A stretch of DNA of 64,000 bases from Pseudomonadota bacterium (GTDB taxonomy: Bacteria; Desulfobacterota; Binatia; UBA1149), in NCBI GenBank assembly GCA_014382245.1, contig JACNKC010000057.1:174-64173 (forward strand), read 5' to 3'. The notes under the pieces were generated by a model, which did not search any database, had not been told where the DNA came from, and saw only the letters and a program-made list of their open reading frames with translations. The first letter of the stretch is position 1; each line of letters starts with the position of its first letter. Shown here piece by piece: positions 15 to 35,574 of the stretch. The position numbers and the translations under genes are program-made.

Positions 15-917
15 TCAAGCCCCGCGGATGAACGAAGAGATCGCTCGCAGCGGCTGCCGAGGGTAGACCTGCCCCTGCTTGGGCGGCATGGAATTGTAAA
101 CGTAATCGAGCTCCAGGTCGGATAGCAGTCGACCCCGGTGCCGCCAGGTACCCCGTACGAGTACGCTCTCCATGTCGAGATTGATGGCAAACACTGACAA
201 TTGCTGACCGGGTCGAGGGGGGCCTGAGCTTGCCCCTGCCGGTGTACCCGACATCAACAGCCGGCCGCTATTGGCGGCGGTGCATGGCAGGGGAAGTGAT
301 AGGCGGGGGTAGCCGTTGTCGGCTATCCAGGATGCGAACTTGAGTGTTCGTGGAGATCGTAGCAGTCGCTGTGCCCAGTTAGACAAGGCCGGGACGCTGC
401 CGGCGTCGCTCACCCGTAGTGTTCGAGCAGCGGCCAGCGCGCCGGCACCAAGCGCCAGGCGCAGCCTGGGCAGCGCGTGGTTCCCGGCGTAGTGAACGAG
501 GTCCAGGTAGTGGACAGTGTGCACGCCGAAGTAGGCGTTGTAGCGAAACATGGGTTTACTGTTGTAAGCGTCGAGGTCGGCGCCCCCGCTTGCCTTCTCC
601 GCCCAGTGCGCCGTACCGCTCCAGCAGCGGCCCCTGCTGTTTACTATCATGAAGGCCGCGCGCGGGTCCGATTGCAGGTGACTCTTGCCCAGCCCCTCGC
701 AGAACTGACCGAACATGAGCCGCGTGGGATCCTTGGCGTTGAGCGAGGTGATGAGCGTCACGTGGGGCAGCCCCTCGGGATCGCGGGTGGCCAGCAGCCC
801 GATTTTGGCGTCGACGCCAAACGCGGCCATGGCGGCTTGGTCCAGGGCGAGAGGGGGAGTAAGCCCGTCGCGGTCGCCGTTACGTGTGGGCACAGTCTTG
901 TTGCTCCTGTTCATCAT
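15..917 (-). CDS. PNPOx-like (pyridoxamine 5'-phosphate oxidase family) FMN-binding split-barrel protein, possibly two tandem halves
   Basis: 300-aa ORF. The N-terminal half reads like a PNPOx-family split barrel (..KIGLLATRDPEGLPHVTLITSL..RAAFMIVN..). Its ATG shares an ATGA junction (914-917) with the activase stop, making it the last gene of the GRE operon. Family call is by eye only. Confidence 0.5.
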   Translation of the reverse strand: MMNRSNKTVPTRNGDRDGLTPPLALDQAAMAAFGVDAKIGLLATRDPEGLPHVTLITSLNAKDPTRLMFGQFCEGLGKSHLQSDPRAAFMIVNSRGRCWSGTAHWAEKASGGADLDAYNSKPMFRYNAYFGVHTVHYLDLVHYAGNHALPRLRLALGAGALAAARTLRVSDAGSVPALSNWAQRLLRSPRTLKFASWIADNGYPRLSLPLPCTAANSGRLLMSGTPAGASSGPPRPGQQLSVFAINLDMESVLVRGTWRHRGRLLSDLELDYVYNSMPPKQGQVYPRQPLRAISSFIRGA

Positions 918-2020
918 CGTGCTGCTGGTGGCCTGGGGGTTCTCGCTCCAGTCTGTTTGCCGCCCGGATCACAGGGTACTTTCACCGGGCCGGTCACAAC
1001 GATCTTGTCGCCGTCCAGGCCGCACGAATGTGCCACCTGCTGCAGGTTTTCGAGCTCCCCGGCTGCCATGGTCTCGACACCTTCGAGCTCCCACCGGTTT
1101 CCCAACCGTCGGTACTTGTCGCCGGCCATGTTGTTGAAAGCGAGCAGCTCCCAGCGAGTGACGACGTCACCCAGCTTGCCGGCGATGAACTCTCCCAGCC
1201 CGCGCAGGTTTTCTTCGTTGGCGGTGAGCCCCGGCACCAGCGGCGTACGAATCCACAGAGAATCCCGCCTTTGCTGCTCCCTGAATCGCTGTGCGAGGGC
1301 CAGCACGTTGCGTAGGATTTCGTGGTTGGAGCGGCCAGTGAAATCCGCGTGGCGCGCAGAATCTATTTCCTTGAGGTCGTAGAGCACCAGGTCGGCGTGT
1401 CGCGTTGACCGCTCCAGTGCCTGCCACGTGCACTGCCCGCAGGTGTCGATCGCGGTGTGAATGCCTCGCTCGCGGCAGAGCCGCAACAGCTCGGAAGTGA
1501 ACGCGGGTCTAAGCGAGGGTTCACCGCCCGAGACGGTAACCCCGCCGCCCGAGCAGCCGTACCAGGCCAGGTCGCGGACGACCTCGTCGAAAACGTCGGC
1601 AGCCGATCTCCGTTGTCCCAGCAGTTCGAGCGCTGCCCAGGGGCAGGCGTCTGTGCACGCGGCGTTGCAGCCGTTGCCAGCGCTGCAAAGGGCGTGATCG
1701 ATGTGGATGGTGCCGCCCGTCGCTGTTAGTGCCCCTTTCAAACAGGCATCCTGGCACGGTGTAAGCGCTGGCCTGGCGTCGCCGTTGCTCCCGGTCGTGT
1801 TCTCCCGGGGTATGCACCCGCTGCACCTGGATTCGTGCCACGCCACGCACGTGGCCGACTCCACGCTCTCGGGGTTATGACACCACGTGCACTCCAGGCT
1901 GCAACCCTTGAGAAACACGGTCGTGCGTATGCCCGGACCGTCCTCGGTGGACATTCGCTGCAGGTTGAGCACCGTGGCCTCCGTGTTGTCACGGGCGGTC
2001 GACTGCCGGGAAACCATCAC
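914..2020 (-). CDS. Glycyl-radical enzyme activating enzyme (radical SAM) with ferredoxin-like Cys-rich insert
   Basis: 368 aa. The N-terminal STEDGPGIRTTVFLKGCSLECTWCHNPE contains the CX3CX2C radical-SAM motif typical of GRE activases. It is followed by extra Cys clusters (CSGC.., CSAGNGCNAACTDACP), as in PFL2-class activases. The gene starts 10 nt after the GRE stop. Confidence 0.9.
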   Translation of the reverse strand: MMVSRQSTARDNTEATVLNLQRMSTEDGPGIRTTVFLKGCSLECTWCHNPESVESATCVAWHESRCSGCIPRENTTGSNGDARPALTPCQDACLKGALTATGGTIHIDHALCSAGNGCNAACTDACPWAALELLGQRRSAADVFDEVVRDLAWYGCSGGGVTVSGGEPSLRPAFTSELLRLCRERGIHTAIDTCGQCTWQALERSTRHADLVLYDLKEIDSARHADFTGRSNHEILRNVLALAQRFREQQRRDSLWIRTPLVPGLTANEENLRGLGEFIAGKLGDVVTRWELLAFNNMAGDKYRRLGNRWELEGVETMAAGELENLQQVAHSCGLDGDKIVVTGPVKVPCDPGGKQTGARTPRPPAAR

Positions 2021-2030
2021 CGGGTCTACG

Positions 2031-4550
2031 CTAGGAATGCGCCTCCCTGGCTATGACTTCGTCCTGCAGTTCGCGGCCTATGCTGGTGAAGTAGGCGTTG
2101 TAGCCGGTGACGCGTACCAGCAGGTGGCGGTACTCGCCGGGGTTGAGCTGGGCGTCGCGCAGGGTGTCGGTGTCGATCACGTTGACCTGCAGGGCAGTGC
2201 CCCCGTTTTCGCAGTAGCCACGAAGAAACCCCTTGAACTTTTCGCGGTGCTCTGCGTCGCGCAGCAGCGATGGACTGAAGCTCATGGTATGGCTGGCGCC
2301 GTTGGGCAACGAGTTGCGGTAGTCCTGCCAATCTCCGTCGCTGCCCCGTCCACCCAGCGCCTGGCCAACCGAGTTGACGTTGGCCGTGGGGCCACTGGTA
2401 TCGGCGCCGTTGGACGGGCAAATGGCGTTGGACAGGAACCTGCCCCGCGGTCTTCCGTCGGCGCTCGCCGCCATGACGTAGCCGCCGTCCACCCAGTAGT
2501 TCCAGCTGAGCATGCCGGGACGAAAGCGCCGGCCGGTGCTGACCGTGCTGTGCTTCCAGGTTTCATCGGTCCACAGGTCCATCACGGCGCAGGCCATGGC
2601 GTCGGCCTCCTGTTGGTCGCGGCCGTACTTGGGCGCGCGCCAGCGGGCCCAGGCCTGCAGGGTCTCGTGCCCGTCCCAGTTGTCGCGCAGGGCCGCGGTC
2701 AGCTCCTCCATCGAGCACAGACCGCGGTCGTAGACCAGGTACTTTATCGCGCACAGCGAGTCCACGGTGGTGGCGAAGGTTACGCCCTCGAGCGTGGTAA
2801 GGTTGATCTCGGCGCCGCCGCGGGTGACGTCGGTGGCCGTTTCGGCGCAGCCGCCCACGAGGCAGGACAAGTAGGGCGTGGGGCTGAAGCGGGCGCGCAG
2901 GCTCTCGGTACGTTCGTAGAGGTCAACGCAACGTTGCACGATGAACTCGTTCTGCCTGCTGTAGGCCGCCCAGAAGTCTTCCCAGCGATCGAACTTCCCG
3001 GCGTCACCCGTGCGCGGGCCGTCTCGGCTGATTTCGCGGGACTCGCCGGTCACGGCGTCCATCGCGGGGGCGAGATCCTCGCCGCCTGTAAGCGCGAGTT
3101 CAACGGCCTTGAGCAGGTTGAGGTTACTGTCAACGGTTCCTGAACGGTCGTTGCCCACCATGGTGTTTTCCAGGCAGCCAACCGGCGCGTACTCGTGGAC
3201 GTTGTCCTCGTTTACGAGGTGCTGGTAGCCGGCCTCGGCGGCTTCGCGCATCATACCGGCCATGGATCTCTCGTCGAAGTTGAGCAGGAAGGGCGATCCG
3301 TGGCTGCGCGAGATCATGTCGACCACGGTGTCGAGCAGGCGGTTGGGAGAACCGCGGTGCAGCCGTACACTCGGCTTGGGCTCCAGTATGGGGCTCATCT
3401 CGTCGATGACCTCGAGGATGGCGTAGGTCAGGTCGTTGGTCGTGTCGACGCCCTCGGCTCCAATGCCCGAAAGCGTTATGAGCTGGCCGAAGCCGGAGGT
3501 GATTCCCTGGTTGCCGCCGATTTTTATCATGGCGTCGTAAGCCGTGTTGGCGTGTACCCAGAAGCAGCGCAGGATTTCTTTGCCGAACTCGCGATCCATT
3601 CCGTTCTCGATCGAGCGGCGCCAGCAGGGGTAGAGGTACTGGTCTACGCGGCCGAAGCTCAGGCCGGGGCCGGGGTAGTTTTCGTCGCTCATCACCAGCA
3701 TGTGGGTGAGCCACAGGGATTGTACTGCCTCCCAGAAGTTACGCGCGGGAAGCCAGGGCACGCGTTCCAGGTTGCGGGCCATGTTCTCGAGCTCCGCCCG
3801 GCGAGCCGGGTCGGCTTCGTCGCGGGCCTCGTCGCGGCAGCACCCGGCGTATTTTCCGGCCAATTCCCCGGGCATGAGAGCAGCAGTCATCATGGCGCGC
3901 AGTTGCGAGCCGGGTTGGCCGTTTTTAGCAGCGTGGTCGAGTGCGTCGTAGCGTTGTTCGAGGTCGCGGTGGATGGCTCCCCAGCCATGCTCGATCACCC
4001 GTGGGTAGTCGGGTAGCAAATGGCCGGAGGTAGCACCCGTGTTGCCGTAGCCGTGCTCGTGGAAATCCTTGATCGCGGCTCTCGTGCCGCGCGGGCCGTT
4101 GACCTCGGCATCGCGTCGACGGGCTTCCTCGCGGTTCCAGCAGCGCGAGGCGAGCAGGTTGAAGCGGGCCCCGGCTATGAGATCACCGGGCAGTATTTCC
4201 CGCGGCAACCTGTTGACCATTATTTCGCGGATCAGCCACGCGCGGCGCTCGGCGAGCCCCCGTTGCCAGAAGTCATCGGGCAGATCGACCCTGCGCGCAG
4301 CCTGCAGGGTGGAAGAGCGGAACGGTTGAAAGAACGCGTAGGTCTCCGGGACGATGTAGTAGGTGGTCTCGTCGTAGACCACGTCCCAGTCGGTACCGGT
4401 TGTCCAGCAACTGAACTCGTTGTTCCACTCGCGGTCTACGCCGCGAAAGTAGTAGTCGCGCAGCCACTGTGCGCGTGGGGACAACGCGCGGGGCGCGGGT
4501 ACAGCGGGTTGCTGTTCGCGGTGATTCGTTGCGTGTGCTGATCCTGCCAT
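2031..4550 (-). CDS. Glycyl-radical enzyme, PFL2 / eliminase-like class, substrate unassigned
   Basis: 839 aa. C-terminal glycyl-radical fingerprint LLVRVTGYNAYF (Gly816, nt 2103-2105). Thiyl loop APVGCLEN (Cys459 nt 3174-3176, Glu461). PFL2-type blocks NYPGPGLSFGRVDQYLYP and GGNQGITSGFGQLITLSG. SD AAGGAAA lies upstream of the ATG at 4550. Confidence 0.92.
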   Translation of the reverse strand: MAGSAHATNHREQQPAVPAPRALSPRAQWLRDYYFRGVDREWNNEFSCWTTGTDWDVVYDETTYYIVPETYAFFQPFRSSTLQAARRVDLPDDFWQRGLAERRAWLIREIMVNRLPREILPGDLIAGARFNLLASRCWNREEARRRDAEVNGPRGTRAAIKDFHEHGYGNTGATSGHLLPDYPRVIEHGWGAIHRDLEQRYDALDHAAKNGQPGSQLRAMMTAALMPGELAGKYAGCCRDEARDEADPARRAELENMARNLERVPWLPARNFWEAVQSLWLTHMLVMSDENYPGPGLSFGRVDQYLYPCWRRSIENGMDREFGKEILRCFWVHANTAYDAMIKIGGNQGITSGFGQLITLSGIGAEGVDTTNDLTYAILEVIDEMSPILEPKPSVRLHRGSPNRLLDTVVDMISRSHGSPFLLNFDERSMAGMMREAAEAGYQHLVNEDNVHEYAPVGCLENTMVGNDRSGTVDSNLNLLKAVELALTGGEDLAPAMDAVTGESREISRDGPRTGDAGKFDRWEDFWAAYSRQNEFIVQRCVDLYERTESLRARFSPTPYLSCLVGGCAETATDVTRGGAEINLTTLEGVTFATTVDSLCAIKYLVYDRGLCSMEELTAALRDNWDGHETLQAWARWRAPKYGRDQQEADAMACAVMDLWTDETWKHSTVSTGRRFRPGMLSWNYWVDGGYVMAASADGRPRGRFLSNAICPSNGADTSGPTANVNSVGQALGGRGSDGDWQDYRNSLPNGASHTMSFSPSLLRDAEHREKFKGFLRGYCENGGTALQVNVIDTDTLRDAQLNPGEYRHLLVRVTGYNAYFTSIGRELQDEVIAREAHS

Positions 4551-4566: not shown

Positions 4567-7479
4567 TCAGGCCGAGGCCATCTCGATCCGTGTCTCGCGG
4601 TCGCTCTGCCCGGGTTGCAGCGAGGCTGGTACCGGTCTCAAGTGATTGTAGCCGCCGGCCAGCTCCACCGGGTTGAGCGGGCTCGGTAGTACGTTGCGGT
4701 AGCCCTTGCCGCCGGGAAACTGGTAGTCCTCCCAGGCGTGGTAGAGGATCACCATGCCCGGGCGCACCGCGTTCGATAGCCGGGCCTTAACGCGGAACTC
4801 GCCCAGGTCGTTGAAGAGGCGCACCGTGTCGCCGTCCTTGATGCCGCGGCTGCGCGCGTCGGGTGCCGCTACGAAGGCGGCCGCTTCTCCGCGCTGCAGT
4901 TGCAGCAGCAGGTCGAGGTTGCGCCAGCCGGCGTGGATGCTCCAGCGGGTGTGGCCGCCGCTGAGCACCAGCGGGTAGTCTCCCCCCGGTCGGGGTACGG
5001 GCAGGTGGGCAGGCAGTTCCTGTCCGAGTTCGAGGTACAAGGGGTGGTCGATGTAAAACTGCACCCTGCGGGTGAGCGTGGGCCAGGGGCCGGGATTGCT
5101 GCGACGCCAACCGCGGTTGACCACCGGTTGGTCGGGCGTCACGTCCGTGGCATTGCCCAGGTTGAAAGGGTGCGTGCCTATTCCGGTTATTCTTTTGAAG
5201 CCATCGTGCCGGAGTTCTTCGAAACCGCCGTCCACGAAGCCGGTCTGTTTTACTATTTCGTGTGCGACCTGCGATTGGGCATGTTCGTCGAAGCGGCCGT
5301 TGAAGGTAAAGCGATGGCCGAAATCATCGAGTCTCTGCTCGTTGCCGTGGCGGTCGCGAAAAGAGGAGACGCCCCGTTCGCGCGCGCGTCGTTCCACCCA
5401 CCGGGCCAGCTCCGCGTGCATGTTCCACTCGGGCTTGCACTCGCCCAGGGGTTCGACGGCCGCCTGGGTGATGTGCAGGTAAGGTGAAAGCAGCGTGAAC
5501 CAGTTGGGTACGTCGTCTTTTTCGTAAGAAGACGCGCCTGGCAGCAGTATGTCGGACTGCAGGCAGGTGGTCGACATGCGCAGGTCGCAGGTGACTACCA
5601 GTTTTATTTTCGGCCAGGCCGTTTCGAGCAGGCGTTGCGCGCTACGCAGGCGCCTCAGTAAATTGCTGCCCGCGACCACGAGCACCCGCGGGGGATCTGC
5701 CGGCGGGCGCTTCTGCCAGTTGTTGTTGTAGGACTCCTCGACGTACTCGTCGATGGGGCGGGGCAGTCGCCTGCCGTGCTCGCCGTCGGTCACCCGGGAC
5801 AAACCGCCGTGGCGTCGCCAGTAAAGCACCGACGATACCACCGACGAATCGTTCATGTAGTCGCGAAAGGCGTCGTATACATAGCGCTCGGTACTGTCGC
5901 CCGCCAGTCGCCGGCCGAGCAGCGCGGGTAGGTGCTTGAGCTTGGCGGCCAGTCCCTCCCACTGGCTGGCGCCGACGGAATCCATGCCCTGCGTCCACAG
6001 GAACGGAGTTGTGTCGAAGCCGGCGCCCGGCTTTCCCACGTGCCCGCCCAGCATGAAAAGCAGCAGTTGCGCCCGCATGATGATGTCGCCGTTGTAGAGC
6101 TTGGGAATAGACGAACCGGCTACGCCGGCCATGGCGCGTGCCCCGGCCACCATATCGGCGAAACGGTGGATGGTTTCAGCCGAGCAGCCGCACAGCTCTG
6201 CCGCTTTTTTGGGCGTGTAGTCCGCGTCGAGTCGCTGGCGCAGGATTTCGAGTACCGGGCGCACGCGGACCGGTCCGTTGTTGGTGCTTACCGTGTAGTT
6301 GCCCTCGAGCGCGGGCGTAACCCCTGCCCAGTCCAGGTCGAAGGGAGCGGGGGAGGGCAGGCCGAGCGAGGGATCCCAGGCGTAGAACTGTTCCTGGCGG
6401 CCGCCTGTGACGAGATCGCTTTCGCGCAGGTAGTGGCCGTCGTCTTTTACCAGCAGTACGAGGTCGGTCTGCGAGCGTACGAAGTCAGCGTCTATGCTGC
6501 CTCGTTCCAATAGTACCTGGCAGGCGGCCAGGGCCAACGCGGCGTCGGTCCCGGGGCGCACGCCTATGAACAGGTCGCTGTGGATGCTCGAGGCCGAGTA
6601 GTCGGTGGCGATGGTGACCACGCGGGTGCCGTTGTAACGGGCCTCGTTGATGAAGTGGGCATTGGGAATCTGCGTGTAAACGGGGTTCGCACCCCAGACC
6701 AGTATGAGATCGGAGTGGAAGAAGTCGTCGGCCGAGCGTGACGATACCGGTGTGCCCATGGTCACCGCTGCGCCGGCCTGCCCGTCGTCGAGCTCGGTGT
6801 TGGTGTCGAGCTCTATGCCGTCGAGCATGTCGACCAGGCGCTGCACGCCCAGCCTCCACGTGGCCGACGCCAGGCTGCCACCGGGCTCAAGGGCCACCGA
6901 GTCGGGACCGGCGAGGGTCACCGCGTCGATGAGCTGGTCGGCGGTCTCGCGGTAGGCTTCGTCCCAGCTGATGCGCTTCCATTTGCCCGAGCCTCTGGGC
7001 CCGACACGTCGCAGCGGGTAGCGCAGGCGGTCGGGCGCGTACATGAGCGCGGAGTAGCAGGCGCCTTTCTGGCAGCCGCGGGGATTGAAGTCGGGTACCT
7101 CGTCGTTTACCGCGGGGTACTCGCCGGCCTGTTCCTCGCGCACGACCACCCCGTCGCGCACGTAGACGTCCCAGGAGCAGTTGCGCTGGTACCAGCAGTT
7201 GACGACGTGCGTACAGCGCACGCGCTTGTCCCAGGCAAGCCGTTGCAGGTAGACGTCCTTCCAGTCGCCGTAGCCCCTTGCTGGAGCGTGGGGCGCGACC
7301 GTACTCGCGGTTGACGTTTCGTATTGGCCGGCATCGCGGTGGCAAGCCGGGACCAGCCCGCCCAGCACGAGGATTGCTGCGCCGCTGCTGCCGCGCCTTA
7401 CGAATTCACGCCTGCTTATTGTTGTTGCCACGCTCGCATCCGTGCCACGTCGGCGCGGGGTGTCGCACACCCCACGCAT
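4567..7479 (-). CDS. Molybdopterin (bis-MGD) oxidoreductase catalytic subunit, NarG/EbdA-like (type II DMSO-reductase family), Tat signal
   Basis: 970 aa. Twin-arginine motif TISRREFVRRGSSGAAILVLGG. FS0-like site RCTHVVNCWYQRNCSWDVYVRDG..PRGCQKG. Block WGANPVYTQIPNAHFINEARYNGTRVV resembles NarG as I recall it. The stop lies 16 nt before the GRE start. The exact start is uncertain (ATG 7479, or GTG near 7431). Confidence 0.85.
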   Translation of the reverse strand: MRGVCDTPRRRGTDASVATTISRREFVRRGSSGAAILVLGGLVPACHRDAGQYETSTASTVAPHAPARGYGDWKDVYLQRLAWDKRVRCTHVVNCWYQRNCSWDVYVRDGVVVREEQAGEYPAVNDEVPDFNPRGCQKGACYSALMYAPDRLRYPLRRVGPRGSGKWKRISWDEAYRETADQLIDAVTLAGPDSVALEPGGSLASATWRLGVQRLVDMLDGIELDTNTELDDGQAGAAVTMGTPVSSRSADDFFHSDLILVWGANPVYTQIPNAHFINEARYNGTRVVTIATDYSASSIHSDLFIGVRPGTDAALALAACQVLLERGSIDADFVRSQTDLVLLVKDDGHYLRESDLVTGGRQEQFYAWDPSLGLPSPAPFDLDWAGVTPALEGNYTVSTNNGPVRVRPVLEILRQRLDADYTPKKAAELCGCSAETIHRFADMVAGARAMAGVAGSSIPKLYNGDIIMRAQLLLFMLGGHVGKPGAGFDTTPFLWTQGMDSVGASQWEGLAAKLKHLPALLGRRLAGDSTERYVYDAFRDYMNDSSVVSSVLYWRRHGGLSRVTDGEHGRRLPRPIDEYVEESYNNNWQKRPPADPPRVLVVAGSNLLRRLRSAQRLLETAWPKIKLVVTCDLRMSTTCLQSDILLPGASSYEKDDVPNWFTLLSPYLHITQAAVEPLGECKPEWNMHAELARWVERRARERGVSSFRDRHGNEQRLDDFGHRFTFNGRFDEHAQSQVAHEIVKQTGFVDGGFEELRHDGFKRITGIGTHPFNLGNATDVTPDQPVVNRGWRRSNPGPWPTLTRRVQFYIDHPLYLELGQELPAHLPVPRPGGDYPLVLSGGHTRWSIHAGWRNLDLLLQLQRGEAAAFVAAPDARSRGIKDGDTVRLFNDLGEFRVKARLSNAVRPGMVILYHAWEDYQFPGGKGYRNVLPSPLNPVELAGGYNHLRPVPASLQPGQSDRETRIEMASA

Positions 7480-7522: not shown

Positions 7523-7551
7523 AGTATATTCGACCTGGCCGGCTATGACAA
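7523..7551 (-). promoter_or_regulatory. Sigma70-like promoter candidate for the Mo-enzyme/GRE operon
   Basis: The minus strand reads TTGTCA (7551-7546), a 17-nt spacer, then TATACT (7528-7523). It lies in the 121-nt gap between the CoA-transferase stop (7601) and the Mo-enzyme start (7479). Confidence 0.4.
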
Positions 7552-7600: not shown

Positions 7601-8848
7601 TCAGCGCAGGTTGGCCAGGTCGATGCTCTTGGGGAAAATCCCGCGGTTGGCGCGGTCGCGCTCCTCCAATCGCTCAATTTCAGCTTCGGGCAGGCCGGCT
7701 TCGGCCATCAGTTCACGGGCGTGCTCTCCTAGCACTGGAGAGGCTGAGCCCAGCCCGGGCTCCTGCCCGTCGAAGGCCAGCGGCGGTCGCGGCAAGCGGC
7801 AGCTTCCGCCCTCGGGGTGCTCGGCTTCGACCAGGGTGTTGCCGTGTCGGACCTGGGGATCCTCGTGAACGCGGTTCACCGGGTTCACCCGGGCCGAGGG
7901 CACGTCAAGCTCGTCGAGCAAGCGGCACAGCGATTCGGTGTCGCGGTCGGCGAGTACGGCGTCCATCTCCTCGGCCAGCTGCTGCCTGTTGGCCACGCGC
8001 CCCCCGAAATTGGCAAACCTGGGATCGGCGTGCAGCTGGCAGCCAAGCGCCTCGCACAGGGCGGCAAAGTCGCTGTCGACTATCAGTATGGTCGACACGT
8101 GGCCGTCGCTGGTGGCAAACAACGGGAAGTAATCGGCAAGTGCCCCCTGTTCGTTTATCTCGTCGCCCAGCAGGGTGTGCTGCCACATGGCGTCGGGCCA
8201 CAGGAAGTACAGCCCCGCGTCCATCATCGACACGGGCAGGAACTGGCCCCGGCCGGTACGCTCGCGCTGAAGCAGCGCTGCGGTTACGGCCTGGGCGGCC
8301 GTCATGCCCGAAACCTTGTCGAACAGCACTGTGCGCACGTTGGCCGGCCTGTCGCCGCCGCCCTGCGCCCCGGCCATGCCGATGGTGGCCTGTACCAGGG
8401 GATCGTACACGCGGCGGTGGACGTAGGGCCCCGACTGCCCGTAGCCAGTGATAGACCCGTAGACGAGGCGGGGATTGACGGCTGCCAGCGACTCGTAGTC
8501 GACACCCAGCTTTGCCGTGACCCCGGGGCGGTAGTTTTCGATAAGCACGTCGGCGGTTTCTACCAGACGCCGCAGGATGGCCGCGTCGTCTGCCTGCTTG
8601 AGGTCCAGGGCTATCGAGCGCTTGTTGCGGTTGAGCACCGAGAACTGTGCGGCGACCCCGTTCCGGTTGTTGCCCATGAAACGCGCGAGGTCACCGGTAC
8701 CCGGCGGCTCAACCTTGACCACGTCGGCGCCCTGGTCGGCCAGTATCATGCCGGCAAGCGGACCAGACACAGTGGAGGTGAGTTCGATGACGCGGTAGCC
8801 GGCCAGCGGCCCAGCGACGGTACGTTGACCATATCCTTTATTCGCCAT
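7601..8848 (-). CDS. Family III CoA-transferase (CaiB/BaiF family)
   Basis: The recognisable protein begins MANKGYGQRTVAGPLAGYRVIELTSTVSGPLAGMILADQGADVVKVEPPGTGD. The track ORF (to 9412) carries a 188-aa low-complexity extension that overlaps the divergent neighbour, so I trimmed it to the ATG at 8848. Confidence 0.85.
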   Translation of the reverse strand: MANKGYGQRTVAGPLAGYRVIELTSTVSGPLAGMILADQGADVVKVEPPGTGDLARFMGNNRNGVAAQFSVLNRNKRSIALDLKQADDAAILRRLVETADVLIENYRPGVTAKLGVDYESLAAVNPRLVYGSITGYGQSGPYVHRRVYDPLVQATIGMAGAQGGGDRPANVRTVLFDKVSGMTAAQAVTAALLQRERTGRGQFLPVSMMDAGLYFLWPDAMWQHTLLGDEINEQGALADYFPLFATSDGHVSTILIVDSDFAALCEALGCQLHADPRFANFGGRVANRQQLAEEMDAVLADRDTESLCRLLDELDVPSARVNPVNRVHEDPQVRHGNTLVEAEHPEGGSCRLPRPPLAFDGQEPGLGSASPVLGEHARELMAEAGLPEAEIERLEERDRANRGIFPKSIDLANLR

Positions 8849-16653: not shown

Positions 16654-16869
16654 GCTGCAGCCGTTTCGTGCGTGCCAGGGTCGGGCGGTGCGACGCCGGG
16701 CCACGGGCAGGAGCATGACCCACCGGGCGGAGGCTTGTCAAGGTTGTATCGTTAGGTGGTGGGTGGCTTTGTTGCCTTTACCGCCAATGAAGGTGACATT
16801 CTCCTGGCCGGGTATATTCCGGGTACCCGGGTCGCGAGCTCACGTGGCCCGGCGCAACTGGGGGAGCAC

Positions 16870-17865
16870 GTGGAGTATGCAGTAGTAGTCGGGGGAGGGC
16901 AGGTCGAGCAGGAAGGGCACGGCCTGGAGGCCTTTGTTGGGCAGGCCCAGCTGGCCGAGTCGCTGGGTTATACGACCGTCTTCGTGCCCGACCATTATCT
17001 TTTTGAACAGATGGGCGAGCTCAAGACCGAGCAGCCAACCTACGAGTTGTTTGCGCTGCTTGGTGCCATCGCCCAGCGCACGCGCAGCATCAAGCTGGGC
17101 AGCCACGTGGCCTGCACGCTGTTTCGTCACCCGGCCATGCTCGCTCGCCAGTTTGCCCAGCTCGACGAGCTCAGTGGAGGTCGCGTGATTGCCGGCGTGG
17201 GTGCGGGCTGGACGAGGTCCGAGTTCGAGATGTTCGGACTGGACTTTCCGCCGGTGTCCGAGCGCCTGCGTATGATGGACGAGGCGGTGGAGATCATGCA
17301 GGCACTGTGGACCGGCGAGCCCTGCAGTTTTGACGGCGAGCACTATCGCCTGCGCGACGCCGTGGCCAGGCCGACCCCGACGCAACAGCCGCGACCACCG
17401 CTGATGCTGGGCGGCGGTGGCAAGGGCATACTCCGGCGCGCCGGGCGCTGGGCCGACATCCTCCACATGGTGCCCGAGATCGGCAAGGCCGGTACGACCA
17501 CGATGGAGAACGTGTCCGCCTTTCACGACGACGTGGTGGCAGAAAAGCTAGCACTGGTGCGAGAGGAGGCCAAGGATGCCGGCCGGCCGGACGGTGCCGT
17601 GCGCTACGCTACGACGATTTTCGTTTACCAGCCCGCCGACAGTGAGAAGCAGGCCGCCGAGACCGCCGAGGGCGCGGCTGCCATGTTCGGGCTCACGGCC
17701 GAGCAGTTCTGCCGTCACCCGGCCGTGCTCGCGGGAACTACCGATCAGATGGTCGAGGAACTGCAGCGTCGTGAGCGCGTGCACGGATTGTCCATCGTTG
17801 CGCTGGAGGCGACCGGGCTCGACAGTATCCGCAATTTCGCCGAGCGTATAATCGCCAACGGCTAA
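16870..17865 (+). CDS. Luciferase-like (LLM class) flavin/F420-dependent oxidoreductase
   Basis: AESLGYTTVFVPDHYLF.., GAGWTRSEFEMFG and the overall LLM layout. Start set at GTG 16870 after GGGGAG; the track ORF starts at 16756. The start is uncertain. Confidence 0.75.
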   Translation: MEYAVVVGGGQVEQEGHGLEAFVGQAQLAESLGYTTVFVPDHYLFEQMGELKTEQPTYELFALLGAIAQRTRSIKLGSHVACTLFRHPAMLARQFAQLDELSGGRVIAGVGAGWTRSEFEMFGLDFPPVSERLRMMDEAVEIMQALWTGEPCSFDGEHYRLRDAVARPTPTQQPRPPLMLGGGGKGILRRAGRWADILHMVPEIGKAGTTTMENVSAFHDDVVAEKLALVREEAKDAGRPDGAVRYATTIFVYQPADSEKQAAETAEGAAAMFGLTAEQFCRHPAVLAGTTDQMVEELQRRERVHGLSIVALEATGLDSIRNFAERIIANG

Positions 17866-17875
17866 CAGGGTGGAC

Positions 17876-18664
17876 TCAGGCCGCCGGCCAGGCCGTGCCA
17901 CCGTCCACCTTTATTACGGCGCCGGTGGTGTAACTCGAAGCGTCGCTGGCCAGGTACAACGCCGCTCCCACGATCTCGTCGGGTCGGCCGCCGCGCTGCA
18001 ACGGTATGTGGGCGGCGGCGCTCTGTTCGAAGGCATCCATGTCCCAGGCCTTGGCTATGTCGGTGAGAAACGGCCCGGGCATGATGCAGTTGACCCTGAC
18101 CGAGGGAGCGTAGGCTCTGGCTAAGCCCAGGCTGAGCGCGTTGAGCCCGGCCTTGGCCGTGGCGTAGGGTAGCTCGTTGGGCGTGGGCTGCACCGCGGCG
18201 ATGCTGCTCACGTTGATAATAGACCCACCGTCGCCCGCCGCCATGCGCTCGCCCACGAGCGCCGACAGCCTGAAGGGCCCCTTGAGGTTTACTCCTATGA
18301 CCTTGTCGAAGAGTTCTTCGCTGACCTCGGCGAGCGAAGGGTACAGCGGCGACATGCCGGCGTTGTTTACCAGCACGTCCACGCGGCCGAAGTGCTTGTA
18401 GGCCGTGTCGACCAGCTCCTGGCACTGCTGCCAGTGGCCGGCGTGAAAGCCTACCCCCAGCGCGTGTCGACCGGTGAGCTCGGTGAGCTGCGTGGCCAGC
18501 TCCTCGCATGCCTTCTCCTTGCGGCTGGCGACCACCACCTCGGCGCCCGCGCGGGCGAAAGCCATCGCCATCTCCCTGCCCATGCCGCGGCTGCCGCCGG
18601 TGACCAGAGCCACGCGGCCCTCGAGATTGAAGAGATCGTTTGCCTGCGAGTCGTTTCTTTTCAC
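17876..18664 (-). CDS. SDR-family oxidoreductase
   Basis: LEGRVALVTGGSRGMG (TGxxxGxG), NNAG, and Y..K in PYATAKAG. Start at GTG 18664, preceded by AGGA. The track ORF extends to 18766. Confidence 0.85.
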   Translation of the reverse strand: MKRNDSQANDLFNLEGRVALVTGGSRGMGREMAMAFARAGAEVVVASRKEKACEELATQLTELTGRHALGVGFHAGHWQQCQELVDTAYKHFGRVDVLVNNAGMSPLYPSLAEVSEELFDKVIGVNLKGPFRLSALVGERMAAGDGGSIINVSSIAAVQPTPNELPYATAKAGLNALSLGLARAYAPSVRVNCIMPGPFLTDIAKAWDMDAFEQSAAAHIPLQRGGRPDEIVGAALYLASDASSYTTGAVIKVDGGTAWPAA

Positions 18665-18792
18665 GATTTTTCCTGTTTTCACGGGTGGAGTGACTGTCTT
18701 TCTGCCTGATGTGCAAGGCTGATACGAGGCATTTGCCGTTGCCTTTCGGTCGGCAGCGAGCAGCACGGCCGCAGGCGCGCTACAATGGCCCG

Positions 18793-19005
18793 ATGAACAA
18801 TGTCATCAACGGTCGTCGTGCTGCCTGGATGTGGGTCGTCTTGCTGCTCGGCTGTTTCATGAGCTCCGGCTGCCTGCTGACCAAGATCGTTTCGGTGCCA
18901 CTGCGGGTCGTCGGTGCGGTGGTTTCCATAGTCCCGATCGCGGGCAACCAGGCCCACGACGCCATCGACGCCACGGCCGACACCCTCGACGAACTGCCGT
19001 TTTGA
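18793..19005 (+). CDS. Small putative lipoprotein (70 aa)
   Basis: MNNVINGRRAAWMWVVLLLGCFMSSGC.. is a signal with lipobox-like Cys. TACAAT at 18781-18786 ends 6 nt before the ATG, which suggests a leaderless transcript. The stop abuts the next gene's start. Confidence 0.5.
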   Translation: MNNVINGRRAAWMWVVLLLGCFMSSGCLLTKIVSVPLRVVGAVVSIVPIAGNQAHDAIDATADTLDELPF

Positions 19006-20148
19006 TTGCCGCGGGGTACCTGGGTGGCTGATGATTACGAAGCGGTGATGGCGGCCGCGGTGGGCCCGCTGCTTGCCAGTCTTGACGGCTTCGAGCAGCT
19101 GCAGCGCCGGCTGCATCCGCCCGAGCTGCCCGCCCTGCGCGCAGCCATGAAACCGGTGGGACAGCGCCTGGCCTCGGGGCTTGACGGCATTGCGGCTGCC
19201 AGCCCGCCCGAGGCCTTGCGCGGCTTTAATGACCAGCTGTTGGCCGGTGGCCGATCGCTTGCCGAGGCCTTCGATCTTTTCTGCTCAGAGGCGGCGGCCG
19301 AGCAGGCCATCATGCAGGTGCTCGCGTCGATGGGTGCCTTCACCCGTTCGCTCGAACAACTCTACCCACTGCGCACCTTCCCGCCGCTCGGGCGATTCTT
19401 TGTCGAACAGGAGTTTCACGATCGCCTCGACGAGCTTGATCCCGAGTCGCGCGAGGGCGTGGCCACGGGGGTGCACCTGGGCGGTGACGCCAACGATCGC
19501 AAGGCCCGCGGTGGCTTCGCGCTCTACGTTCCCGAGTGGTGGGACGGCAGCGCCGAGATGCCGCTCGTGGTAGCCCTGCACGGAGGCTCGGGCGACGGGC
19601 GCGGTTTCATGTGGAGCTGGCTGAGAGAGGCCCGCGGCCGTGGGTTTTTTCTGCTCGCCCCCACCGCCCAGGGCTCGACCTGGTCGATGATGGGCGAAGA
19701 CATCGACGGCCCGGCCCTGCGGGCCATGGTAGAGCTGGTCGCCGAGCGCTGGCCGGTAAAGCGCTCGAGTATCCTGCTCACCGGCCTGTCCGACGGTGCG
19801 ACTTACTCGCTGCTCACCGGCCTTGCCGAAGACTCACCCTTTACCGCGTTTGCTCCGATGTCGGGGGTACTGCACCCCGGAAATCTCGAGCGAGGCAACA
19901 TGCAGCGCGCCGCGGGCAGGCGTATTTATCTCGTGCATGGCGCCTTGGACTGGATGTTCCCGGTGGAAACAGCGCGCTGGGCGGCCGGGCAGCTGGGCGA
20001 TGCCGGCGCCGAGCTGGTGTACCGCGAAATAGAGGACCTGTCGCATACCTATGCCCGCGACGAAAACGACCGTATACTGGATTGGTTCGATGCTTCGCTG
20101 GCCCTGCCCGGCGACGGCGAGAAGAACAAGGGAGGAAACGAAACATGA
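19006..20148 (+). CDS. Phospholipase/carboxylesterase-type alpha/beta hydrolase with an N-terminal helical extension
   Basis: PLVVALHGGSGDGRGFMWSW, GFFLLAPTAQGSTWS and LTGLSDGATYS (GxSxG-like). Start is ambiguous (TTG 19006 to ATG 19048). Confidence 0.75.
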   Translation: MPRGTWVADDYEAVMAAAVGPLLASLDGFEQLQRRLHPPELPALRAAMKPVGQRLASGLDGIAAASPPEALRGFNDQLLAGGRSLAEAFDLFCSEAAAEQAIMQVLASMGAFTRSLEQLYPLRTFPPLGRFFVEQEFHDRLDELDPESREGVATGVHLGGDANDRKARGGFALYVPEWWDGSAEMPLVVALHGGSGDGRGFMWSWLREARGRGFFLLAPTAQGSTWSMMGEDIDGPALRAMVELVAERWPVKRSSILLTGLSDGATYSLLTGLAEDSPFTAFAPMSGVLHPGNLERGNMQRAAGRRIYLVHGALDWMFPVETARWAAGQLGDAGAELVYREIEDLSHTYARDENDRILDWFDASLALPGDGEKNKGGNET

Positions 20149-20534
20149 CTATCGATCTATGGATGCTGGTTTACTGTTGTACCCTGGCGCTGCTTAGCCC
20201 CGCGTTGTACCTGGTCGGACGTTTCGGAGCGGCCGGTGGCATGGAGTGGCTGCTGGGCAACCGCGACAGCTCGCTCGGTGTGCCAGCGTGGACCGACCGT
20301 GCCGTGCGTGCCCACTACAACCTCATCGAGAGCCTGGTACCGTTTGCCGCTCTCGTGCTGGTGGCCCACACGGCGGGCCTGGCCAACGAGACCACGGCCC
20401 TGGGCGCCACGGTGTTTTTCTGGGCCCGCGTTCTTTACGTGCCAGTGTATACGGCCGGCCTTCGGCCCTGGCGCACGCTGGTCTGGTTCGTGGGCCTGGG
20501 CGGGCAGATCATGATACTGGGCGAGTTGCTCTGA
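20145..20534 (+). CDS. MAPEG-family membrane protein
   Basis: 129 aa, 3-4 TM segments. NRDSSLGVPAWTDRAVRAHYNLIESLVPFAALVLVA is typical of bacterial MAPEG. ATGA overlap with the upstream esterase stop. Confidence 0.8.
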   Translation: MTIDLWMLVYCCTLALLSPALYLVGRFGAAGGMEWLLGNRDSSLGVPAWTDRAVRAHYNLIESLVPFAALVLVAHTAGLANETTALGATVFFWARVLYVPVYTAGLRPWRTLVWFVGLGGQIMILGELL

Positions 20535-20544
20535 AGCGTAGCGA

Positions 20545-20922
20545 TCAGTCGCGCCAGGCCAGCAGTTGCAGCATGGATCTGCCAGTGACGCGCAGGGTGC
20601 CGAAGACATAAACCAGGCCGATCATGCCGTCGAAGACCACCAGCCCGTAGAGCTCCTCGCCCGCCAATCCAGCGGGTACCGCGTAAAGGACCGCGGCGGC
20701 GGCCGACAGTCTGACCAGGCCTTGCCAGACGATGACCGGCGCGCGTCCAGCTATGTCTTTTGACGCCCACACCAGGCATGCCGCAGCCATCATCAAGAAC
20801 ATGCCCAGTGTCAACAGCGGTACGAAGTGCTGGGGCACCGGGTCGGAGACTGCCCCGTACCAGGTACCCAGCCCCACCAGGTAGTCCAGGGCACCGGTGA
20901 TAAGAACAAATTTCTGCAACAT
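20545..20922 (-). CDS. Hypothetical 4-TM membrane protein
   Basis: 125-aa hydrophobic ORF with a strong SD (AAGGAGA) 6-7 nt upstream of the ATG at 20922. No family recognised. Confidence 0.55.
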   Translation of the reverse strand: MLQKFVLITGALDYLVGLGTWYGAVSDPVPQHFVPLLTLGMFLMMAAACLVWASKDIAGRAPVIVWQGLVRLSAAAAVLYAVPAGLAGEELYGLVVFDGMIGLVYVFGTLRVTGRSMLQLLAWRD

Positions 20923-20981
20923 GCTTGTCTCTCCTTTATTTCGGTTCGTGGTCCTTTCCGCCCCTTGCCTCGCGCAGGGGA

Positions 20982-22244: not shown

Positions 22245-22330
22245 GTTATCTCCAGGGGGGTATCAGACGCCTCCCCCTTTTAGCGGGGCGGGGTTGGCTT
22301 GGCCAGCCCCGCGGTGCAGGGTGGTTGGCC

Positions 22331-28854: not shown

Positions 28855-28877
28855 GTTCCTGTCTCCGCTGCCTGTTT

Positions 28878-31336: not shown

Positions 31337-31357
31337 GTTGGTCTCTCCCGCTGCCGG

Positions 31358-32149: not shown

Positions 32150-32607
32150 GTCTTTTTCCCCGTGCTGGCCTCGCTTGTGCCGGTGGTTCCTCCGCTGGTC
32201 GGTTCGAAGCGGGGAATTTTCCGGTCGCCCGCCTGTTCAAACACCAGCTGCACTCTCATGCCGGTGCGCACTGCGTCGGAATCGAGCCCCGTTACGTTCG
32301 ATACCATGCGCGGGCCCTCGTCCAACTCTATGACCGCCACGACGTAGGGCGGTGGTATCGCGGGGTGGTAGCCGTGGCGGTAGACGGTGTACGTCACGAC
32401 CTGTCCGCGGCCGCTCGCCGCGTGCTGGTCGATATAGCTTGACCAGCAGCGCGGACAGCAGGGGCCGGGGGGCAGGAAGTAGTGCCCGCAGTCGCGGCAG
32501 TGCGTCATCATCAGCGATCCGTGTTGGCAGGCTTCCCAGAACGACGCCGTCAGTTGGTCATCTGCGGGCGCGGGGTGCGCGGTTTTCGTGGCTGCCTTTT
32601 CCTCCAT
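32146..32607 (-). CDS. DUF35 Zn-ribbon/OB-fold protein (BbsA / ChsH2-C-terminal type thiolase partner)
   Basis: 153 aa. Four-Cys ribbon CRDCGHYFLPPGPCCPRC followed by an OB-fold region. ATGA and TGATG overlaps with both neighbours. Confidence 0.85.
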   Translation of the reverse strand: MEEKAATKTAHPAPADDQLTASFWEACQHGSLMMTHCRDCGHYFLPPGPCCPRCWSSYIDQHAASGRGQVVTYTVYRHGYHPAIPPPYVVAVIELDEGPRMVSNVTGLDSDAVRTGMRVQLVFEQAGDRKIPRFEPTSGGTTGTSEASTGKKT

Positions 32608-34900: not shown

Positions 34901-34930
34901 CGTTTGTTCCTCTTGTCCGGGTTGGCTCGC

Positions 34931-35569: not shown

Positions 35570-35574
35570 GCCAG

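Follow-up and report, generated by a model that had tools for sequence, protein, structure and literature searches.

In subfamily II of the DMSO-reductase family a conserved aspartate ligand is the defining mark, and ethylbenzene dehydrogenase (EbDH; alpha subunit EbdA) shares with the rest of the subfamily an FS0 cluster held by three cysteines and one histidine (PMC8840923). EbDH is a soluble periplasmic enzyme (PMC8840923), and a periplasmic location has been proposed for steroid-C25-dehydrogenase (S25DH; PMC6016249). Sterolibacterium denitrificans carries eight alpha genes (S25dA1-8) and fewer beta-gamma pairs, some of the alphas having no beta-gamma of their own; several share one beta-gamma and chaperone, and active enzyme was obtained from alpha1, alpha2 and alpha3 alike when each was produced with beta3gamma3 and the chaperone SdhD (PMC6016249).

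The window (the whole 64-kb stretch of DNA analysed) encodes a protein that, judged by its sequence and a structure model, belongs to the type II alpha subunits of the DMSO-reductase family, with a predicted Asp-ligated molybdenum, a His/Cys3 FS0 motif and a Tat signal. A preliminary description had presented it as a stand-alone, type-II-like molybdoenzyme with a variant FS0 motif. The type II assignment is borne out, the Mo-bisPGD domains, the predicted Asp ligand and the His/Cys3 motif all being present. The gene is intact and encodes a putatively exported catalytic subunit of the EbDH/S25DH group with an unassigned substrate, and it is called an ordinary member of that group because its FS0 motif is group-typical and partner-less loci are common in the group.

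Gene structure, family and fold

The alpha gene and its neighbours lie as follows:
4567..7431, minus strand: coding sequence of the alpha subunit, 954 aa from GTG at 7431
2031..4550, minus strand: uncharacterised glycyl radical enzyme (GRE) with GCLE and RVTGY motifs, 839 aa, downstream of alpha
914..2020, minus strand: GRE-activating radical SAM enzyme (TIGR02494, 277 bits, above cutoff)
15..917, minus strand: PNPOx-like (FMN-binding split-barrel) protein (Pfam PNPOx_N)
7601..8848, minus strand: family III CoA-transferase, 415 aa, called on Logan contig L075 (CoA_transf_3, 363 bits), upstream neighbour of alpha
7523..7551, minus strand: promoter-like TTGTCA-17-TATACT, a consensus match only (10/12 matches in a consensus scan)

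The open reading frame of the preliminary description (4567-7479) is real; by the ORF list and translation it lies on the minus strand and, read from the ATG at 7479, has 970 aa. The GTG in the same frame at 7431 is the likely true start, and is preferred because it agrees with the database gene call P0001 (954 aa, a 100% match to the window alpha) and with the N-termini of orthologs, which begin 4-5 residues ahead of the twin-arginine motif. Residue numbers from this start are therefore 16 lower than in the 970-residue numbering, which is used below except where 954-residue equivalents are given. The frame comprises 954 intact codons with coding-type composition (GC3 0.81), and full-length orthologs with 62-71% identity occur in many MAGs.

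The protein contains the Pfam domains Molybdopterin (PF00384, 134.9 bits) and Molydop_binding (PF01568, 60.9 bits). By far the best model is TIGR03479 (DMSO_red_II_alp), which matches end to end (protein residues 23-966, profile positions 1-911 of 913) at 797 bits, far beyond chance (E 2e-239) and under the NCBI curated cutoff of 984.75 bits; by this score the alpha is a divergent rather than seed-like member. In a PDB sequence search EbdA was the best match (2ivf_A, E 3e-160, residues 22-966), followed by PcrA and then NarG. The AF2 model (pLDDT 85) superposes on EbdA 2ivf_A with TM 0.88/0.92 and rmsd 2.7 A and shows the same four-domain fold as EbdA, PcrA and NarG (TM 0.78-0.92), and the proteins closest to it in fold all serve as alpha subunits in multi-subunit enzymes. 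The preliminary description had allowed for a place in a known monomeric clade of defined function. Monomeric DorA/TorA, FdhH and Desulfovibrio NapA, in whose way a partner-less alpha would have to work, share the general Mo-bisPGD fold but score much lower (TM 0.54-0.60, 16-18% identity). The Mo ligand of these monomeric enzymes is Ser, Sec or Cys, and DorA lacks FS0.

Comparison by profile and phylogeny with the DMSO-reductase clades places the protein with type II, in the EbdA/S25DH-like branch. In the tree it falls within a clade (clade A, 62-71% identity) of sequences from MAGs of Binatia, Myxococcales and 'Deltaproteobacteria', none of them characterised, with a Chloroflexota clade (clade B) as sister; both lie beside S25DH-annotated relatives of gamma-beta-alpha organisation. 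The clade B alphas are signal-less. Metagenomic relatives annotated as S25DH, such as P0092, are about 44-45% identical to the window alpha, which differs from them in belonging to a separate clade.

FS0 motif, predicted molybdenum ligand and Tat signal

Four features of the alpha gene bear on its cofactors, active site and location:
7072..7209, minus strand: FS0 [4Fe-4S] motif His91-x3-Cys95-x5-Cys101-x34-Cys136, from the EbdA alignment
6784..6786, minus strand: predicted Mo-ligand codon Asp232 (Asp216 in 954-residue numbering), aligned with EbdA Asp223
6100..6102, minus strand: codon of Lys460 (Lys444 in 954-residue numbering), equivalent by alignment to EbdA Lys450
7342..7431, minus strand: twin-arginine signal peptide MATTISRREFVRRGSSGAAILVLGGLVPA, followed by C, read from the translation

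Positions counted by hand along the translation agree with the arrangement described earlier, Cys89-x-His91-x3-Cys95-x5-Cys101...Cys136 followed by SWDVYVRDG at nt 7072-7215. The interpretation of this arrangement as a variant FS0 with a longer second spacer, and the accompanying view that EbdA has H-x3-C-x3-C, have to be given up, as the PDB sequence of crystallised EbdA reads H82-LNI-C86-WPQGS-C92...C127, with x5 in the second spacer and an identical x3/x5/x34 pattern overall. His91, Cys95, Cys101 and Cys136 (H75/C79/C85/C120 in 954-residue numbering) line up column by column with H82/C86/C92/C127 of EbdA and do not vary in 57/57 aligned sequences, nor in alignment A1. Among 120 homologs, H-x3-C-x5-C is present in every one with a complete N-terminus (116/116), and the motif is, by these comparisons, the standard one of the EbdA/S25DH-like branch. 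An x3 second spacer was seen only in PcrA in the alignment of PDB relatives; NarG and other reductases have the x3 spacer in the published motif. Cys89 is not a conserved ligand position, being replaced by Gly or Ser outside the close clade.

Asp232 matches EbdA Asp223, is invariant in 57/57 sequences and in alignment A1, and is predicted from the alignment to coordinate Mo. The column of Lys460 and EbdA K450 is likewise invariant across 57 aligned relatives including EbdA, and both signatures of the EbDH/p-cymene dehydrogenase/S25DH subcluster, the x5 FS0 spacer and the Lys450 equivalent, are found in the window alpha. From the literature on the EbDH mechanism we take EbdA K450 and H192 to be active-site residues. 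The second of these is Gly in the window alpha, and among the aligned relatives H192 is found only in EbdA, with Gly, Pro or Thr elsewhere; because EbdA His192 is not conserved, the substrate and even the reaction direction may differ from those of EbdA.

The translation also contains the SRREFVRRG motif and the hydrophobic segment ending LVPAC (Cys46) that were noted previously. The motif spans residues 22-30 (nt 7390-7416), and S-R-R-E-F-V-R followed by hydrophobic GSSGAAILVLGGLVPA fits an S/T-R-R-x-F-L-K type motif with its hydrophobic segment. Of the database homologs nearest to the window alpha (P0001-P0022, 22 proteins), 16 carry it at the same position, and four of the six that lack it are N-terminally truncated entries. 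These observations suggest that the alpha is a Tat-exported periplasmic protein. For the VPAC end of the signal, with Cys46 (Cys30 in 954-residue numbering), a lipobox and a signal peptidase I site are both conceivable. Compared with the lipobox [LVI][ASTVI][GAS]-C this end has Pro at -2, which is off the usual rule, and the Cys is absent in orthologs, while comparable P-[AGS]-C ends are found again in several of the more remote proteins of the family. Residues 24-57 have low confidence in the AF2 model, which would suit a stretch that is cleaved off or serves as a linker.

The best match in both sequence and fold, EbdA of Aromatoleum aromaticum (PDB 2IVF), thus shares its FS0 spacing, Asp ligand, Lys450 equivalent and Tat signal with the window alpha, but the two proteins are only 33% identical, His192 is replaced by Gly and no ebdBCD-type genes are adjacent. 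Assignment as EbdA proper was rejected on this identity and substitution and on the EbdA equivalog model NF042978, which the protein matches at 551.6 bits, below the cutoff of 2000. PcrA and NarG resemble it in the His/Cys3 FS0, the Asp ligand and four-domain Mo-bisPGD binding (PMC8840923), but both are reductases, PcrA with the shorter H-x3-C-x3-C spacer and 29-30% identity, and NarG with 20% identity and about 300 additional residues. S25dA1-8 are likened to the window alpha by description, as members of the same DMSOR subfamily II hydroxylase subcluster (PMC6016249).

Partner genes and proposed function

A tblastn search (E <= 1) with real subunits from related loci found no beta, gamma, NarJ-like delta or cytochrome b homolog in the 64 kb, upholding the earlier statement that no beta, gamma or chaperone gene lies in the window. 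The window also holds no four-cluster ferredoxin ORF and no c-type cytochrome, and a further 2.7 kb of Logan contig contains no beta, gamma, delta or cytochrome gene. Three look-ups of Logan beta homologs gave no match to the sample of the window (SRR6056610).

The term stand-alone is apt for the gene order but is not supported as a functional property of the protein, since orthologs adjoin partner genes. Three orthologous loci (L006, L008 and L029, 62-66% identity) adjoin gamma-beta-cytochrome b clusters and extra alpha paralogs, their divergently adjacent genes comprising MarR, alpha, cytochrome b561-like, EB_dh gamma, beta and further alphas. In a fourth (L005) the ortholog lies beside three alpha paralogs and a NarJ-like (Nitrate_red_del) chaperone, with no beta or gamma in 22 kb. 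Orphan alphas account for about half or more of the loci in every clade, and no beta was found in 7/11 clade A and 5/6 clade B loci, within flanks of up to about 10 kb per side and less at contig ends. As most loci of these two clades have no beta nearby, a lineage-wide change in partner usage is conceivable.

Related loci resemble S25DH-type systems in their gamma-beta-alpha order and in a lipid or steroid-like catabolism context, and some homologs with the x5 spacer carry the JGI annotation steroid C-25 hydroxylase alpha. Canonical delta/gamma-beta-alpha clusters have neighbours of the same kinds as the window, including acyl-CoA dehydrogenase, thiolase, AMP-ligase, TetR, P450 and luciferase-like genes.

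The best overall explanation, which is considered probable, is a periplasmic EbDH-type alpha that would be a hydroxylase by analogy and would receive its partners in trans. It would form the catalytic subunit of a Tat-exported, periplasmic enzyme dependent on Mo-bis-pyranopterin-guanine-dinucleotide, within the EbDH/p-cymene dehydrogenase/steroid-C25-dehydrogenase branch of DMSO-reductase subfamily II, most likely catalysing water-dependent C-H hydroxylation of a hydrophobic substrate at an Asp-ligated Mo centre. The candidate target is a side chain of alkyl, isoprenoid or steroid type. The proposed electron path runs from Mo through the His/Cys3 FS0 to the four clusters of a beta subunit, on to haem b in gamma and then to a high-potential acceptor. 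By analogy with the relatives, the genes for beta, gamma and a NarJ-like chaperone most probably lie in another part of the genome and serve several alpha paralogs.

The glycyl radical enzyme module and rival explanations

Downstream of alpha, the GRE (Pfam PFL-like and Gly_radical; NCBIfam PFL2-3 at 378 bits, below cutoff) has HypD as its best PDB match (2e-77). It starts 16 nt past the alpha stop with an AAGGA ribosome-binding site, and no terminator-like site was found in the gap. The activase follows 10 nt downstream and is overlapped by 4 nt by the PNPOx-like gene, the third member of a conserved module that accompanies GRE and activase in at least 15 metagenomic loci. Upstream, the promoter-like element lies inside the gap between the CoA-transferase gene and alpha (121-169 nt, depending on the alpha start). 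The 16-nt gap suggests that alpha and GRE are co-transcribed, which could reflect a real functional link. The preliminary description saw a topological paradox in a periplasmic oxidoreductase beside a cytoplasmic GRE, but periplasmic hydroxylases feeding cytoplasmic pathways are normal in the group, the products of EbDH/S25DH-type hydroxylases being then processed in the cytoplasm.

Such a link would make alpha, the GRE-activase-PNPOx-like genes and perhaps the CoA-transferase one catabolic operon, in which the molybdoenzyme hydroxylates or oxidises its substrate outside the cytoplasm and the product is imported and processed by the GRE. This is compatible with the favoured account of the enzyme, to which it adds a functional link, and agrees with the shared strand, the short gap with its ribosome-binding site and no terminator-like site, and the promoter-like site upstream of alpha. 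A second, independent alpha-GRE co-localisation occurs in a Dehalococcoidia locus (L037), where a clade B alpha is flanked by two PFL2-type GREs, an activase, CoA-transferase subunits and an acyl-CoA dehydrogenase, and GREs in 2 of about 18 clade A and B loci exceed our own rough expectation, made with no formal test. The L037 GREs share only about 30% identity with that of the window, however, and conservation speaks against the coupling: about 20 orthologous GRE-activase-PNPOx-like loci (GRE 62-72% identity) have no EbdA-like alpha, their upstream genes varying among GntR, MFS, RecO and phosphoesterase, and every clade A alpha locus other than the window lacks the GRE and this CoA-transferase, which is not conserved beside alpha orthologs. 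The adjacency is thus not conserved, since the module occurs in so many loci without alpha, and the single operon is considered unlikely. The position of alpha ahead of the module is best read as a lineage-specific gene order, possibly with co-transcription, that forms no obligatory functional unit.

A little less likely still is a truly partner-less alpha, in which the clade and its Chloroflexota sister have dispensed with a dedicated beta-gamma. FS0 of the exported protein, which Cys46 might anchor to lipid, would then be the direct electron donor of another acceptor, for instance a ferredoxin-like protein or a soluble cytochrome. The missing partner genes of the window and its extension, the betas missing from the flanks of most loci in both clades, the four alphas and chaperone of L005 and the LVPAC ending with its counterparts in the family all fit this arrangement. 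FS0 and all other alpha features are, however, unchanged relative to the beta-bound EbdA, PcrA and NarG, and the close fold matches are all multi-subunit alphas; three orthologous loci adjoin gamma-beta clusters and one a chaperone, about half of the gamma-beta-alpha-type clade are orphans as well, and the signal ending has its Pro at -2 and a Cys that orthologs lack. For S. denitrificans, moreover, the sharing of beta-gamma by orphan alphas is on record (PMC6016249). Improbable to a greater degree is a terminal or detoxifying reductase of oxyanions or other compounds, like PcrA, SerA, ClrA or NarG: the cofactor ligands match PcrA and NarG, PcrA is structurally similar (TM 0.83), and the EbdA-specific His192 is missing from a protein of unassigned substrate, but EbdA is closest in sequence and fold, the x5 spacer is that of EbdA and all close homologs including the S25DH-annotated relatives and not that of PcrA, and the gene neighbourhood, in the window as in relatives, is one of lipid or CoA-ester catabolism, not respiration. 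A decaying, functionless remnant of a former gamma-beta-alpha operon would explain the isolation of alpha from partner genes, but is very improbable given the intact frame and its GC3, the conservation of every cofactor ligand, the full-length orthologs and the confident structure model.

Taken jointly, a clade and sister of beta-gamma-free alphas, one of which was here recruited with the GRE module into an operon for a new anaerobic pathway, is as doubtful as the reductase. If true, a single hydrophobic substrate would undergo both Mo-dependent hydroxylation with oxygen from water and glycyl-radical chemistry, and the Dehalococcoidia MAG would provide a second instance. A true alpha-GRE link would in itself point towards a new anaerobic degradation route, although the conservation data argue against it.

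Under the favoured explanation, the window alpha, whose host is an uncultured organism of Binatia, Myxococcota or 'Deltaproteobacteria' type, is an uncharacterised member of the branch of molybdoenzymes that would act as anaerobic C-H hydroxylases, and adds to the evidence that alpha paralogs greatly outnumber beta-gamma modules in the EbDH/S25DH branch. An orphan alpha should therefore not be annotated as a monomeric or variant-cluster enzyme. Such alphas may be relevant to the mining of regio- and stereoselective hydroxylases, as with S25DH in 25-hydroxyvitamin D3 synthesis.

Family assignment and cofactor ligands

The molybdoenzyme catalytic subunit (alpha) lies on the minus strand together with four neighbouring genes:

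4567-7479, minus strand: alpha, the window protein, 970 codons in translation
2031-4550, minus strand: glycyl radical enzyme (GRE), 839 aa with GCLE and RVTGY motifs, 16 nt past the alpha stop, with an AAGGA ribosome-binding site
914-2020, minus strand: activase, 10 nt after the GRE
15-917, minus strand: PNPOx-like protein, overlapping the activase by 4 nt
7601-8848, minus strand: CoA-transferase, 121-169 nt away from alpha according to the alpha start chosen

Translation of the alpha ORF gave every motif as written in the preliminary description: SRREFVRRG at residues 22-30, a hydrophobic stretch closing with LVPAC (Cys46), followed by Cys89-Thr-His91-VVN-Cys95-WYQRN-Cys101 and SWDVYVRDG, with Cys136 inside PRGCQKGA. 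The start is most likely the in-frame GTG at 7431, which yields 954 aa; the gene call in the protein collection (P0001) is this GTG-start form and is 100% identical, and this start places the N-terminus 5 residues ahead of the RR motif, matching the orthologs. Residue numbers here refer to the 970-aa form, and those of the 954-aa form are lower by 16.

The window protein contains the Pfam domains Molybdopterin and Molydop_binding. Its best NCBIfam model was TIGR03479 (DMSO reductase type II alpha), matched end-to-end but short of its curated cutoff (797 bits, cutoff 984.75), followed by the ethylbenzene dehydrogenase (EbdA) equivalog (552 bits, cutoff 2000) and then NarG. A sequence search of solved structures placed EbdA (2ivf_A; E 3e-160, residues 22-966 against 20-972) ahead of PcrA (7e-135) and NarG (about 3e-67). 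An AlphaFold2 model, built with 52 sequences as input (pLDDT 85, pTM 0.87), matched EbdA in the fold search with TM 0.88/0.92 and rmsd 2.7 Å, followed by PcrA (TM 0.83), NarG (0.78) and NxrA (about 0.72), while monomeric DorA, FdhH and Desulfovibrio NapA reached TM 0.54-0.60 at most. The sequence and fold rankings thus make the window protein an EbdA-type alpha subunit of subfamily II. This bears out the type II assignment of the preliminary description, and the protein does not belong to a known monomeric clade. A monomeric enzyme of DorA, NapA or FdhH type was dropped on the fold search, and EbdA proper on model score, identity and His192, identity being 33% to EbdA and about 45% to relatives annotated as steroid C25 dehydrogenase (S25DH).

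The FS0 motif had been described as a variant, on the premise that EbdA has two x3 spacers. That premise was wrong: the EbdA chain rebuilt from the HMMER alignment (residues 20-972, 953 residues as expected) reads H82-LNI-C86-WPQGS-C92 ... C127, giving an x3/x5 arrangement and an overall spacing, H-x3-C-x5-C-x34-C, identical to that of the window protein (H91, C95, C101, C136), whereas PcrA (H-LVN-C-TGA-C in the same alignment) is two residues shorter. H-x3-C-x5-C was also present in 116 of the 120 nearest database homologs, with no x3 second spacer in any and N-terminal truncation in the other four, and the motif is accordingly no variant. The four FS0 ligand columns were invariant in a 57-sequence MAFFT alignment including EbdA, as were those of D232 (EbdA D223) and K460 (EbdA K450). 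Cys89 is confined to the close clade in the homolog listing, with Gly or Ser elsewhere, and the conserved fourth FS0 ligand is His91, which fits the FS0 of three Cys and one His and the Asp molybdenum ligand of subfamily II (PMC8840923).

Partner subunits in the window and in related loci

The earlier statement that no beta, gamma or chaperone gene lies in the 64 kb stands. tblastn with a 354-aa four-cluster beta (Fer4_11), an EB_dh gamma and a cytochrome b561-like protein, all from the Myxococcales locus L006, and with a Nitrate_red_del chaperone from the Binatia locus L005 detected no homologs in the window at E <= 1. Regular expressions for four-cluster ferredoxins turned up nothing in the window but a small 2x[4Fe-4S] ORF, and a looser pattern caught real betas in related loci that served as tblastn probes. 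There was no credible CxxCH cytochrome in the window, no partner gene in the extra 2.7 kb past the window start on the Logan contig, and nothing in Rfam (including Moco riboswitch) and tRNA scans of the window. Three Logan-only matches among the beta homologs, looked up for a beta from the sample of the window (Logan SRR6056610), were all from other samples.

The only Fe-S ORF in the window encodes the 2x[4Fe-4S] ferredoxin (48099-48389, minus strand; MARRHGHYYVDDTCIGCGACDHACP ... CIDCDLCVPLCP), which is masked by a long ORF call at 45775-48339. The DUF3604 protein of that ORF probably starts later, at MNKFYTAIACALLLAACG, which is lipoprotein-signal-like.

Relatives were drawn from 45 loci of a species-representative genome scan (best match 70% identical) and two further orthologous loci, and were placed with database homologs in a neighbour-joining tree in which EbdA is the sole characterised member. 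The window protein falls in clade A, a group of 62-71% identity with Tat signals, found in metagenome-assembled genomes labelled Binatia/Binatota, Myxococcales or 'Deltaproteobacteria'. Its sister, clade B, comprises Chloroflexota/Dehalococcoidia proteins of about 50% identity without signal peptide (P0023-P0075; L012-L014, L037, L038, L045), which keep every FS0 and molybdenum ligand, usually have no beta within 10 kb, and would be EbdA-like alphas in the cytoplasm. Clade C adjoins A and B at 39-47% identity. The gamma-beta-alpha order is frequent there, and some members carry the annotation steroid C-25 hydroxylase subunit.

Within clade A, a divergently oriented partner cluster lies directly upstream of the ortholog in L006, L008 and L029, all from Myxococcales. 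In L006 and L008 it runs MarR, alpha paralog, cytochrome b561-like protein, EB_dh gamma, beta and a further two alpha paralogs, and the stretch covered of L029 shows only a single alpha paralog with cytochrome b, gamma and beta. The EB_dh haem b gamma lies beside the cytochrome b561-like (Ni_hydr_CYTB) membrane protein in L006 (999-9357, minus strand) and also in L008 and L029, which suggests a membrane- or quinone-linked form of an otherwise soluble enzyme type; these clusters further include MarR, one beta and two or three alpha paralogs that share 38-46% identity with the window protein. The Binatia locus L005 (9962-22080) has the ortholog, three tandem alpha paralogs on the other strand and one NarJ-like chaperone, with no beta or gamma across its 22 kb. 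Solitary clade A loci are L001/L009 (same contig), L002, L003, L004, L011, L032 and L035.

Counted over up to about 10 kb on each side of alpha, and less at contig ends, a beta was present in 3 of 11 clade A, 1 of 6 clade B and about 10 of 21 clade C loci; orphan alphas are therefore the rule and no oddity. This agrees with the surplus of alphas over beta-gamma in Sterolibacterium denitrificans S25DH: the eight alpha paralogs of this organism outnumber its beta-gamma genes, its native S25DH1 is alpha1-beta3-gamma3, beta3gamma3 gave an active alpha-beta-gamma enzyme with each of alpha1, alpha2 and alpha3, and one chaperone, SdhD, is essential for these enzymes (PMC6016249). The most economical reading is that the window alpha uses beta, gamma and delta (the NarJ-like chaperone) encoded elsewhere. 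An alpha that is truly partner-less, as its isolation in the window might indicate, is unlikely beside these shared beta-gamma subunits. No paper on ahyA in Binatota was found.

The adjacent glycyl radical enzyme and wider gene context

Upstream of alpha there is a promoter-like TTGTCA-17-TATACT, and nothing resembling a terminator was seen between alpha and the GRE; co-transcription is plausible. The nearest characterised GREs are HypD, IslA and CutC-type eliminases, at only about 2e-77, and all NCBIfam equivalog cutoffs were missed. The limonene-activating GRE was set aside as an unrelated, fumarate-adding enzyme (PMC12583861). A metagenome scan with the GRE as query returned 27 orthologous loci (62-74% identity), in which GRE, activase and PNPOx-like protein (about 300 aa, FMN split-barrel, found in 15 loci) form a three-gene module wherever sequence suffices; this module spans 15-4550 (minus strand) of the window and has counterparts on at least 15 metagenomic contigs among loci L048-L067, with GREs of 62-72% identity.

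An EbdA-like alpha was found at none of the 27 GRE loci, where the genes upstream of the GRE differ (GntR regulator, MFS transporter, RecO, phosphoesterase), and neither a CoA-transferase of the window type nor any GRE was found at other clade A alpha loci; the adjacency is therefore not conserved. A 23% match in L053 was rejected as a different molybdopterin protein. The only other alpha-GRE co-localisation found was a same-strand cluster in the Dehalococcoidia locus L037 (2653-20677, plus strand), encoding a PFL2-type GRE, two CoA-transferase subunits, an MmgE/PrpD-like protein, an acyl-CoA dehydrogenase, a clade B alpha, a CrtI-like oxidoreductase, an unknown protein, a second GRE, also PFL2-type, and an activase. 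The L037 GREs are only about 30% identical to the window GRE. A real alpha-GRE pathway, which this cluster favours and which is compatible with the main explanation, is a minority possibility given the unconserved adjacency from both sides. Recruitment of a beta-gamma-independent clade into a pathway of molybdenum hydroxylase and glycyl radical enzyme is improbable.

Elsewhere the window has genes for acyl-CoA dehydrogenases and enoyl-CoA hydratases, for a thiolase-like protein and an AMP-dependent ligase, for TetR regulators and SDRs, and for a P450 as well as luciferase-like and TauD-type oxygenases. Similar gene kinds flank canonical delta/gamma-beta-alpha clusters elsewhere, and the context fits breakdown of hydrophobic, CoA-activated substrates. 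A beta-oxidation-like block with a TetR regulator occupies 26252-38965. It encodes two enoyl-CoA hydratases and two acyl-CoA dehydrogenases along with a thiolase-like protein, a citrate-synthase-like protein, an AMP-dependent ligase and a carboxyltransferase, and in L076 and L077 these gene families flank canonical gamma-beta-alpha clusters. A P450, a TauD-type dioxygenase and two luciferase-like monooxygenases (16756-24669 and 39015-39992) lie 12-35 kb from the strictly oxygen-sensitive GRE system (914-4550) and the anaerobic-type molybdenum hydroxylase, which suggests a facultative lifestyle.

Signal peptide and proposed mechanism

The N-terminus of the window protein, S-R-R-E-F-V-R and then GSSGAAILVLGGLVPA, is consistent with a Tat leader, and its RR motif is kept in the orthologs. 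The leader ends in V-P-A-C, whose Cys is absent from orthologs; this could be a lipobox, and Pro at -2 is atypical for one. Atypical leader ends of the form P-[AGS]-C (LVPAC, LAPAC, LVPGC, LPGC, LPSC) occur in the window (7342-7356, minus strand) and in several distant relatives, among them P0078, P0094, P0096 and P0107, and in these lineages may serve as a variant lipobox for Tat-exported lipoproteins.

The hydrophobic substrates and products of ethylbenzene dehydrogenase (EbDH) and S25DH are metabolised further in the cytoplasm. The topological conflict that the preliminary description saw between an exported alpha and a cytoplasmic GRE does not arise, as EbDH is a soluble periplasmic enzyme (PMC8840923) and S25DH has been proposed to be periplasmic (PMC6016249).

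In the mechanism that we consider probable, alpha would mature in the cytoplasm with Mo-bisPGD and FS0, aided by a NarJ-type chaperone, and would be exported by Tat together with a beta subunit. Periplasmic alpha would then hydroxylate a C-H bond using water at the Asp-ligated molybdenum, with electrons passing from FS0 to the clusters of beta, on to haem b and finally to a high-potential acceptor. What is observed is the fold with its ligands, the signal motif, the position in the clade and the pattern of gene neighbourhoods; the chemistry, the class of substrate and partners acting in trans are what we infer. There is little likelihood that the protein, whose closest solved structure is EbdA, is instead a reductase, and a remnant gene is very improbable where the ligand columns are invariant. 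Within a clade that lacks a characterised member, the window protein has cofactor sites and a genetic isolation that are as already documented for the subfamily.
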